From: an uncultured Ectothiorhodospiraceae bacterium
Lineage (GTDB): Bacteria > Pseudomonadota > Gammaproteobacteria > S012-40
Reading direction: 5' to 3'
NCBI GenBank assembly: GCA_945787715.1
Contig: CALZJE010000003.1
Location: 6,088 to 70,087, forward strand
Length of the DNA: 64,000 nt
Numbering within the stretch: the stretch's first letter is position 1; each line of letters starts with the position of its first letter. Both the position numbers and the translations under genes were made by a program. The notes beneath the pieces are model-generated. The model was not told the DNA's origin and did not search any database. It saw nothing but the letters and a program-made list of their open reading frames with translations. Below, piece by piece: positions 28,736-30,085 of this stretch.

Positions 28736-30085
28736 TTATGAATGATTTTCTTGTTGCTTGCGCAACTGTAGCGCTCGCGGCGTAATTTTTAATTGCTTTG
28801 CAATCTTCGCGGTAGAGCCATTATGTTCAGCCATAGCAACATCGATAGCAACATCGGCGGCAGCACTACTAATTTCTTTTAAGCCCACGCCCAGTGAGAG
28901 TGCTTTACGAACAGCGGCTTCAAGATCTCCACGGCGCCAGTCACTCGTTTCTCTTGTGATGTTTTGAAATTCATCGTGGGGTATATCACCGATCGTATAT
29001 TGGCCGTCGCAAACATGACGGCCTCGCATGCGTAAGCAAAGCTGTCGAAGATCACGAATATTACCAGGATAAGCACGATTAATGAGATGGTGCTGTACGG
29101 CTGAGTCGAGTTCTGGATTTATATCATTTTGATGACGGAGGAAATGTTTAGCTAACGATAGAATGTCTTCCTTACGTTGTGAAAGTGATGGCAGCGTAAC
29201 GGTCCAATCTGCGAGACGGTAATAAAGATCACGGCGAAAACGCCCTGCTTCAATTTCTTCTAATAAATTTCGATTTGTAGCGCAGACTAGTCTGAAATCG
29301 GTGTCATGCCATGTGTTGCCACCGACTCGTTTGTAACGTTTTTCTTGAAAAACGCGTAGCAGTTGCACTTGAAGATCCAATGGCAACTCGCCGACTTCGT
29401 CTAGAAATAAGACACCACCGTCGGCCCGCGAAAATGCTCCTTCACGTTGACTACCTGCTCCGGTAAAAGCACCGCGCTCGTGACCAAAAAATTCACTGCC
29501 AGATAGGCTTGGGACAATGGTGGCACAATCTACTATGCTAAGTTCCTGCTGACTACGCAGAGGATCTACGGAATGAATAACTTTTGCAGCGAGTTCTTTT
29601 CCTGTTCCCGTTTCACCGTTAATTAAAACTGCATAATCACTAAATCTCGCGGCTTCAACAATTTGCCTTAAGGCCATTAGCCAAGGTATGCTGTGGCCAA
29701 TGACGATATCTTGTATTTCTGGGGAATTAGTGATTTTATTTACTCTCTCCCAACGACGAAGACGTACTGCAATATGGTCAGCTGTTTTACCTTCGTTGTC
29801 CCATAAGACGACGTCACTCGCGCCAGCTTCAATCAAACGATATACATCGTTACTATTTAGGTAGTCTGGGTTTGTGGTTACTGCGATAACGCGCTGTTGG
29901 GTTCTACAAGAGAATTTAGAAATACAGCTATATACATTGTCATCGGCATGATCGAATACGATAATCGCGGCTTTCGCATTATCTTTTGTATCGTCAATAC
30001 AAAAAATCACGCCTCGATTAATGAGGATTTGATGGATCGAATCGCGATTCACTACACCCAAGCAATTTAGGACTGTCCGTGTCAT
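28736..30085 (-). CDS. Sigma-54-dependent transcriptional activator (bEBP) with an atypical N-terminal receiver-like domain
   Basis: AAA+ domain with GETGTGKE Walker A and the GAFTGA sigma-54 contact motif, plus a C-terminal HTH. The N-terminal ~120 aa are receiver-like but lack the usual acidic pocket. Convergent with the upstream operon. Confidence 0.8.
   Translation of the reverse strand: MTRTVLNCLGVVNRDSIHQILINRGVIFCIDDTKDNAKAAIIVFDHADDNVYSCISKFSCRTQQRVIAVTTNPDYLNSNDVYRLIEAGASDVVLWDNEGKTADHIAVRLRRWERVNKITNSPEIQDIVIGHSIPWLMALRQIVEAARFSDYAVLINGETGTGKELAAKVIHSVDPLRSQQELSIVDCATIVPSLSGSEFFGHERGAFTGAGSQREGAFSRADGGVLFLDEVGELPLDLQVQLLRVFQEKRYKRVGGNTWHDTDFRLVCATNRNLLEEIEAGRFRRDLYYRLADWTVTLPSLSQRKEDILSLAKHFLRHQNDINPELDSAVQHHLINRAYPGNIRDLRQLCLRMRGRHVCDGQYTIGDIPHDEFQNITRETSDWRRGDLEAAVRKALSLGVGLKEISSAAADVAIDVAMAEHNGSTAKIAKQLKITPRALQLRKQQENHS

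Follow-up and report, generated by a model that had tools for sequence, protein, structure and literature searches.

The window analysed here, a 64,000-nt stretch of contig CALZJE010000003.1 from an uncultured Ectothiorhodospiraceae bacterium, carries a minus-strand gene at 28736-30085 for a bacterial enhancer-binding protein with an intact sigma-54 activator core (Table 1). The gene is convergent with a plus-strand operon of five genes, g1 to g5 (22908-28645), and 90 nt separate the two stop codons. Two short palindromes and a sigma-54 promoter-like element precede g1. The activator is very probably dedicated to this operon, and its N-terminal domain has the shape of a receiver with a degenerate phosphorylation site, for which phosphorylation-independent control appears the best reading. 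An earlier note made from the letters alone had reported the open reading frame (ORF), its convergence on the operon and an AAA+ domain with a canonical GAFTGA loop, all of which are confirmed. The N-terminal strings that it quoted are found in the translation as well (VVNRD, residues 11-15; IIVFDHADDN, 41-50; IAVTTNP, 67-73; NEGK, 97-100).

Table 1. Features of the activator gene, the convergent operon, its upstream region and the related rpoN genes. Coordinates refer to the window unless a related locus is named; amino acids, aa.
Feature	Coordinates	Strand	Details
Sigma-54 enhancer-binding protein gene	28736..30085	-	449 aa; ORF call, Pfam
Pseudo-receiver-like (beta-alpha)5 domain, predicted	29726..30085	-	Residues 1-120; AlphaFold model and family alignment
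N-domain model, first part			beta1 3-9; alpha1 14-23; short beta2/alpha2 between 26 and 36
N-domain model, middle part			beta3 39-44; alpha3 49-60; beta4 65-70; alpha4 78-86
N-domain model, last part			beta5 89-94; long alpha5 100-119; linker helices 122-128, 133-139
Helical linker	29678..29725	-	Residues 121-136; conserved SP..Q..L.G.S..W; joins alpha5 to AAA+ core
AAA+ sigma-54 interaction domain	29198..29677	-	Residues 137-296; Pfam Sigma54_activat (PF00158), E 3e-56
AAA+ lid domain AAA_lid_14	29024..29179	-	Residues 303-354; Pfam
Divergent Fis-type helix-turn-helix (HTH)	28760..28846	-	Residues ~414-442; Pfam HTH_8 below threshold
g1	22908..23627	+	239 aa; acidic EFE-rich N-terminal half, then basic glycine-rich segment
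g2	23624..24946	+	440 aa; invariant HEVGH (H193, E194, H197) plus E233, D237
g3	24958..26826	+	622 aa; no Pfam or PDB match
g4	26864..27694	+	276 aa; Amidase_2, N-acetylmuramoyl-L-alanine amidase, endolysin-like
g5	27731..28645	+	304 aa; trypsin-like serine peptidase
Candidate enhancer site 1	22738..22751		CGAAGTTTCCTTCG; CGAAG-N4-CTTCG, perfect
Candidate enhancer site 2	22780..22793		CGAATCAATCTTCG; 1 mismatch; 42 nt from site 1
Sigma-54 -24/-12 promoter-like element	22837..22852	+	TGGCATTCATTCTGCT; ends 56 nt upstream of g1 ATG
rpoN, Kribbella capetownensis YM53	L078 18141-19832		In cassette; domains
rpoN, metagenome-assembled genome	L066 18745-20115		In cassette; domains
rpoN, metagenome-assembled genome	L079 19796-21115		In cassette; domains
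rpoN, metagenomic locus	L082 8641-9957		Directly upstream of activator

The ribosome-binding site GAGGTGG sits 5 nt 5' of the activator ATG. All catalytic motifs of the AAA+ domain are found, comprising Walker A (GETGTGKE, residues 157-164), Walker B (LFLDEVGE, residues 226-233) and the sensor and arginine motifs CATN, FRRDLYYRL and PGNIRDL. The GAFTGA loop (residues 205-210, 29456-29473) is nearly invariant among 69 homologues. The HTH, described earlier as canonical, turned out to be divergent: it scores 16.2 bits (E 0.009) against Pfam HTH_8, whose cut-off is 22 bits. The family consensus GNLQRAARRLGVTDRALQMR looks Fis-type, whereas the window activator has GSTAKIAKQLKITPRALQLR instead. No named activator equivalog (RtcR, NorR, NifA, NtrC, PspF and others) reached its NCBIfam cut-off; the best was RtcR with 260.8 bits against 650, besides ntrC (224 against 559) and PspF (210 against 444). 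These matches span residues ~115-445 only. The AAA+/HTH part is most like RtcR-type models (NCBIfam, 2.8e-77; PADLOC 'RtcR_PspF2 CARF_AAA_HTH', 4.1e-82).

A scan of one genome per species yielded more than 500 relatives of the activator, and the loci of the best 80 were studied. These 80 are 44-53% identical over residues ~13-443. Relatives occur in at least ten phyla, the lineages being Acidobacteriota, Myxococcota (Myxococcus, Corallococcus, Archangium, Sorangium), Nitrospirota, Nitrospinota, Planctomycetota, Verrucomicrobiota, Alpha-, Beta- and Gammaproteobacteria, Desulfobacterota, Rhodothermales, Candidatus Entotheonella and Actinomycetota (Kribbella, Streptosporangiaceae). Gene order was informative in 57 loci whose sequence runs on for 6 kb or more downstream of the activator. 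A g3 homologue is convergent with the activator in 51 of them; three have the operon upstream and co-directional, and three have none. ORF clustering showed that one layout, convergent with the activator, recurs. Its genes are g1 (a single copy or two), g2 and g3, then frequently an Aminotran_1_2-like gene, from one to three cargo genes, frequently a Peptidase_M20 gene, and an Amidohydro_2 gene. The cargo modules are Amidase_2, PG_binding_1, OmpA, VanY, Peptidase_M74, trypsin, PLD and DUF2272, and domain fusions tie the cargo cluster together (amidase-trypsin, amidase-PG_binding-OmpA, VanY). The window operon is minimal, without the aminotransferase, M20 and amidohydrolase genes. This layout is common to the two closest relatives, the metagenomic locus L086 (activator 71% identical) and Pelagibius sp. 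Alg239-R121 (L085).

Alignment of the region upstream of g1 with that of L086 revealed conserved CGAAG/CTTCG blocks. Site 1 is the sole perfect CGAAG-N4-CTTCG palindrome in the window, and the centres of sites 1 and 2 lie ~118 and ~76 nt, respectively, upstream of the predicted start site. A search for CGAAG-N4-CTTCG with up to one mismatch in 1.40 Mb of window and related loci sequence found 208 sites, among them 26 pairs 38-46 nt apart. All 26 pairs are spaced 41-43 nt, 16 of them at exactly 42, against a chance expectation of ~0.03 pairs for each spacing. For 25 of the 26 pairs, a -24/-12-like motif is found no more than 300 nt away; for most, a strong match to TGGCAC-N5-TTGC occurs within ~60 nt and points towards g1. 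This order, two palindromes and then a -24/-12 promoter, stands ahead of g1 in the window and in 25 other loci. Of 31 loci, 16 had high-scoring -24/-12 motifs upstream of g1, where the density was 1.14 per kb against 0.07 per kb in whole loci (16-fold enrichment). Near-identical motifs stand at the same distance in L086 (TGGCATCTATTCTGCT) and L085. The promoter-motif search also recovers the expected glnA promoter at 17423. Judged from co-occurrence, the palindromes are presumed binding sites of the activator, and the natural reading of the 42-nt spacing would be two activator dimers on the same helix face, four turns apart.

The synteny and the conserved two-palindrome/sigma-54 promoter module upstream of g1 make the activator very probably the dedicated regulator of g1-g5, as had been proposed from its position. 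Alternatively, the adjacency could be coincidental and the activator could serve other sigma-54 promoters elsewhere in the genome, a view to which the convergent rather than divergent orientation of the genes and the lack of a palindrome beside the activator's own promoter in the window lend themselves. Such a coincidence is hardly credible against a convergent arrangement kept in nearly all informative loci across at least ten phyla, a palindrome-promoter module that goes with the operon wherever the activator occurs, and the position of the sole perfect palindrome of the 64 kb upstream of g1.

Further elements were noted in these upstream regions. A second module of palindrome pair and sigma-54 promoter, or a module facing away from g1 towards extra cargo-like genes, occurs in L028 (16509-16564, 17209-17263) and, near 18825, in L011 and L014, so the regulon can span more than one transcription unit. 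In the window, a triple motif GCRWWATGAAAAK (22499, 22612, 22656) was considered as an enhancer and set aside in favour of the CGAAG-N4-CTTCG pair, as it is absent from L086 and not conserved across loci. Repeats of this motif flank TCACCAACCTGGTGA (22633-22647), the centre of a 63-nt imperfect palindrome at 22609-22671, which is placed 330 nt past ntrC and ~200 nt ahead of the g1 sigma-54 promoter. TCACCAACCTGGTGA holds an NtrC-box-like core, GCACCA-N3-TGGTGC, with two outer mismatches. NtrC may give the operon a second input, related to nitrogen. In the window, the NtrC box is matched best (one mismatch) at 19648, upstream of ntrB. The 63-nt palindrome is not present in the closest relative, L086.

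The N-terminal domain of the activator (residues 1-120) is left out by all profile matches. Residues 1-125 have no Pfam or NCBIfam match, Response_reg being absent at E 0.01, and the PADLOC and NCBIfam model matches begin at residue ~122. Pfam searches of 25 family members at E up to 10 found neither Response_reg (PF00072) nor any of PF06490 (FleQ), PF21155, PF21194, PF21695, PF21714 and PF22368, which are the catalogued pseudo-receiver families (PMC12632262). One of the 25 gave a weak match to TadZ_N (PF16968, E 0.006). A jackhmmer search seeded with the receiver of the window's NtrC recovered none of 79 family N-domains. Structure prediction was more informative. AlphaFold of the full activator from the single sequence was uninformative (pLDDT 41), while residues 1-140 with a 69-sequence alignment gave a model with a pLDDT of 90 and a pTM of 0.85, a (beta-alpha)5 fold whose five strands and five helices follow in the expected order. 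Comparison of this model with the PDB by Foldseek returned flavodoxin-like folds, among them many receivers with TM scores of 0.5-0.6. The top match was the atypical N-terminal receiver of CpaE (4dn6, E 5e-4, TM 0.61), followed by AmiR and by many true receivers (VbrR, CheB, KdpE, PhoB, NarL and NtrC1, 4l4u). A relation to receivers is suggested by this fold together with an in-register motif: AGASDV..W of the family reads as the receiver signature GA.D...K with Trp for Lys. The domain is therefore best described as receiver-shaped in its predicted structure, its homology to true receivers not being demonstrable from sequence. The receiver-like fold of the earlier note thus stands for the predicted topology, and falls short in that no sequence method recognises a receiver.

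A segment of this domain, DVYRLIEAGASDVVLWDNEGKTADHIAV (29786-29850, residues 79-100, running on to 118), resembles the ankyrin-repeat consensus. Exhaustive phmmer searches with the activator N-terminus gave 176 matches, headed by ankyrin/STAND proteins of giant size (13 repeats with a summed E of 2.5e-24); a word-indexed search with the N-terminal 150 aa gave nothing. Ten longer phmmer matches scanned with Pfam comprised seven sigma-54 AAA+ activator fragments, two ankyrin-repeat proteins and one without a Pfam domain. An ankyrin repeat in residues 79-118 (LIEAGASDVVLWDNEGKTADHIA) was rejected as a chance likeness: the model places alpha4-beta5-alpha5 there, and the NEGKT of the segment is not conserved in the activator family.

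The positions that carry the phosphoryl chemistry of receivers were compared over 121 homologues. The position of the acidic pair after beta1 is occupied by G10-V11, and the family has G, E or D at 10 and P, R or Q at 11, with no acidic pair; the loss of the acidic pocket, noted earlier as VVNRD in place of DD, is borne out by alignment and model. The Asp position after beta3 is D45 (D in 50, S in 37 and E in 14 homologues), and the Thr position at the end of beta4 is T70 (A in 66, P in 29 and T in 10). The Lys position directly after beta5 is W95, a Trp in 120 of 121. Alignment with hhalign pairs D45, T70 and W95 with NtrC D55, T83 and K105, respectively. The Asp and Thr that were thought to be retained are thus in the right places in the window protein and are not conserved in the family; D45 and T70 would appear to be lineage accidents rather than conserved features. 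The Lys candidate of NEGK has to be given up, since K100 falls in the beta5-alpha5 loop, where the family has D, E or N. By published definitions (PMC12632262) the domain would be classed as pseudo-receiver-like, aspartate-less in most of the family and in no catalogued Pfam type. Conservation is found elsewhere in the domain. W82 (Y in the window protein), L84, L85, G88-A89-S90-D91-V92, W95, A102, R108, R111, W112, V115 and D116 (D/N116) are conserved and map to one surface, the alpha4-beta5-alpha5 face with one side of alpha5.

No histidine kinase adjoins the activator in the window. The nearest kinase gene is ntrB (19759-20886), paired with its own ntrC (20892-22307), whose product has a full receiver (Response_reg E 6e-26). 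In 82 related loci only two kinase-like ORFs were found, neither adjacent to the activator, and the recurrent neighbours are not histidine kinases; the earlier statement that no cognate kinase is adjacent holds throughout. A Ser/Thr protein kinase with TPR repeats occurs near the activator in four of 80 loci (L001, 678-3515; L017, L051, L055), and an adenylate-cyclase/STAND/TPR protein in two (L012, L050). In some lineages, either might act as an alternative signalling input.

The protein could still be a normal, phosphorylatable orphan response regulator of the NtrC type with its kinase encoded elsewhere. The correct positions of D45 and T70 and the presence of an NtrB gene 8 kb off fit such a view, which is nevertheless very improbable: beta1 is not followed by an acidic pair that could bind Mg2+, an invariant Trp stands where Lys should be, the residues at the Asp and Thr sites vary among D/S/E and A/P, respectively, the Response_reg profile stays silent throughout the family sample, no kinase is linked in the related loci, and the NtrB adjoins an NtrC of its own. 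Given the absent acidic pair, the Trp in place of Lys and the lack of conservation of Asp and Thr, the N-domain appears to be without Asp-phosphoryl chemistry, and phosphorylation-independent control, suspected earlier, gains support from the degenerate site and the lack of a linked kinase.

A different origin of the domain, as a flavodoxin-like or Rossmannoid ligand sensor not derived from receivers (cobalamin-binding-like, TrkA-N-like or degenerate CARF-like), is unlikely but deserves more weight than an orphan regulator. Cobalamin-binding domains (2yxb, 4r3u, 8dpb) score like receivers in Foldseek, a weak TrkA_N match (E 0.11) was obtained, the AAA+ and HTH parts are nearest to RtcR and CARF-type models, and ligand-binding pseudo-receivers are known (PMC12632262). 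Against this, the cobalamin motif DxHxxG is not conserved, positions 45-50 being variable, and a Gly-rich nucleotide loop is lacking. The RtcR-type matches leave the N-domain outside, and the top 50 fold matches contain no CARF structure. Conservation falls on alpha4-beta5-alpha5 rather than on the C-terminal edge of the sheet, where ligands of this kind bind. From alignment, Foldseek and Pfam, it was judged unlikely that the N-domain binds cobalamin or NAD or is a CARF domain.

The favoured mechanism is that of a dedicated, phosphorylation-independent activator. Activator dimers would bind via the C-terminal HTH to the two 14-bp palindromes. Powered by ATP and by means of its GAFTGA loops, the AAA+ ring would then convert the closed sigma-54 complex at the promoter upstream of g1 into an open one. 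Until a non-phosphoryl input frees the ATPase, the N-domain would repress ring assembly, the alpha4-beta5-alpha5 face and the long alpha5-linker helix being the part under selection that would hold the ATPase inactive. The N-domain is assigned this repressing role because the same surface keeps the ATPase of NtrC1 and DctD in an inactive dimer; the alpha4-beta5(-alpha5) interface mediates the inactive dimer in the NtrC family (PMC12632262). As release signal, a partner protein would be the first choice by analogy with AmiC-AmiR, FleN-FleQ and PspA-PspF, and a ligand the second. The regulon g1-g5 looks like a payload needing a tight off-state, which would suit sigma-54 promoters. Low basal activity is typical of these promoters.

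Several points weigh against this mechanism. Repression by an inactive dimer is drawn from the analogy with NtrC1 and DctD. D45 and T70 are structurally correct in the window protein, where by sequence residual phosphorylation may persist. The family profile of the N-domain found no receiver among all PDB sequences, and the alignment of the domain to NtrC/CheY-type receivers, which the earlier note had suggested, is in register and non-significant (probability 0.45 and E 0.13 by hhalign, run against a small set of aligned receivers with rows for CheY, Spo0F, PhoB and NtrC). The Foldseek E-values are modest (5e-4 or weaker), with cobalamin-binding domains scoring about equal to receivers. The host rpoN does not lie within the 64-kb window; that the host has one is implied by ntrBC and by the sigma-54 promoter of glnA type, both of which the window holds. 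With these points taken into account, the reading as a whole, a dedicated g1-g5 activator acting from two palindromes through a phosphorylation-independent pseudo-receiver with release from repression, is considered likely.

Among known activators, NtrC1 and DctD share with the window protein the order of receiver topology, AAA+ and HTH as well as the long alpha5-linker helix into the AAA+ core. They differ in that the window activator has no DD pair, a Trp for the Lys, unconserved Asp and Thr, no partner kinase and no Response_reg match. FleQ and FlrA are likewise sigma-54 activators with a receiver-like N-domain that lacks phosphorylation residues, and they are controlled without phosphorylation. 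The window activator does not match the FleQ-type profile PF06490, however, and no FleN-like partner gene was seen here. FleQ dimerises via a surface other than alpha4-beta5-alpha5 (PMC12632262), the face conserved in the window activator. The regulon of FleQ covers flagella and exopolysaccharide, that of the window activator a putatively cell-wall-related operon. CpaE/TadZ (4dn6, TadZ_N), the best fold match of the N-domain, and the pseudo-receiver of AmiR (1qo0) both use the receiver shape for protein-protein interaction in place of phosphorylation. TadZ is fused to a ParA/MinD ATPase and AmiR to an ANTAR RNA-binding output, whereas the window N-domain is fused to a sigma-54 AAA+ domain; identity is 12-16%. 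RtcR and PspF resemble the window activator as single dedicated activators beside one operon of stress or damage type, without phosphorylation control. RtcR has an N-terminal CARF domain and PspF no N-terminal domain, in contrast to the pseudo-receiver-like domain here, and no PspA-like or Rtc gene is found in g1-g5.

A complete rpoN gene accompanies the cassette in some relatives. It was found in the flank of three of 80 scanned loci, all Actinomycetota, and just upstream of g1 in all three actinomycete loci where the upstream region is visible (Table 1). The rpoN copies in these loci, like the one in L082, have the Sigma54 AID, CBD and DBD domains. In Kribbella (L078), rpoN is separated from g1 by the palindrome pair and the promoter. 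Actinomycetota are reported to be almost wholly without functional sigma-54 (PMC12316311). Judged by these gene contents, the cassette apparently brings its own sigma factor in this phylum, and it may account for some of the rare rpoN genes in Actinomycetota, a group for which Alloactinosynnema and Modestobacter are reported examples (PMC12316311).

The products of the operon are in part enzymes of familiar type. g4 resembles phage endolysin amidases, and g2 may be called zincin-like by motif only. The C-terminal part of g1 has the conserved motifs LELEG.S.ED.EFE.AR.FVR and SGRW.R.G..I.L.G. The proteins g1, g2 and g3 have no match in Pfam, NCBIfam, PHROGs or PADLOC, and profiles of g2 and g3 none against PDB sequences. 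Hydropathy indicated neither a signal peptide nor a clear transmembrane helix in g1-g5, and no N-terminal targeting domain common to the cargo proteins was found. Two functions are put forward with low confidence. A tightly gated lytic or antibacterial payload is suggested by the leaderless peptidoglycan hydrolases and the cationic glycine-rich g1 with its acidic pro-region, which resemble holin-endolysin logic; the acidic pro-region of g1 is possibly processed by the HExxH protein g2. A pathway for salvage of peptidoglycan peptides is suggested by the genes for aminotransferase, M20 and amidohydrolase proteins that most other loci possess.

More speculatively, the cassette could be a horizontally mobile, self-contained sigma-54 switch, equipped with its own rpoN in Actinomycetota, that silences a potentially lethal payload until a non-phosphoryl signal acts on a pseudo-receiver of a new type. 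The payload would consist of g1, the HExxH protein, the 600-aa protein of no known family, leaderless peptidoglycan amidases, peptidases and phospholipases. The cassette would then represent an undescribed system for autolysis, abortive infection or antibacterial release in at least ten phyla, a possible but doubtful proposal. The searchable literature, including the conflict-systems paper of Kaur et al. (2020), yielded no sigma-54 defence or lysis cassette of such composition, which is no proof of absence.

Sigma-54 activators with non-phosphorylated receiver-like domains (FleQ) and dedicated activators without a kinase (PspF, RtcR) are already known. New are a type of pseudo-receiver without a Pfam profile, an operon of unannotated families, a 42-nt two-palindrome enhancer found across phyla, and the actinomycete copies that carry rpoN. 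The on-off switching of pseudo-receivers is recognised as an unsolved question (PMC12632262). The family offers a clean case, with one activator, one operon, a two-site enhancer, no kinase and an invariant alpha4-beta5-alpha5 surface. It also marks a very large unannotated gene cluster: the g3 family comprises at least 4450 clusters, every one named 'hypothetical protein', and the gene cluster is spread over Acidobacteriota, Myxococcota, Nitrospirota, Planctomycetota, Verrucomicrobiota, Pseudomonadota, Desulfobacterota and Actinomycetota.

The cassette occupies 22.3-30.6 kb of the window, between ntrC and a SpoU/TrmL methylase gene (30632-31096). Upstream lies a classical cluster of glnA, an ORF for a lipoprotein-like protein of 183 aa, ntrB and ntrC (17423-22307), with the glnAp2-like promoter TGGCATATGTAATGCT at 17423. 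Just past the cassette, 31102-32304 on the minus strand encodes a predicted lipoprotein of 400 aa with a weak von Willebrand factor A domain; its linkage to the cassette is not conserved in other loci. An AT skew of -0.29 at 58-60 kb results from a Lys/Glu-rich protein of 975 aa (57664-60591, minus strand), which is probably a coiled-coil. It is followed at 61008-61715 by the gene for a canonical response regulator of PhoB type, in which the DD/D/T/K set is intact.

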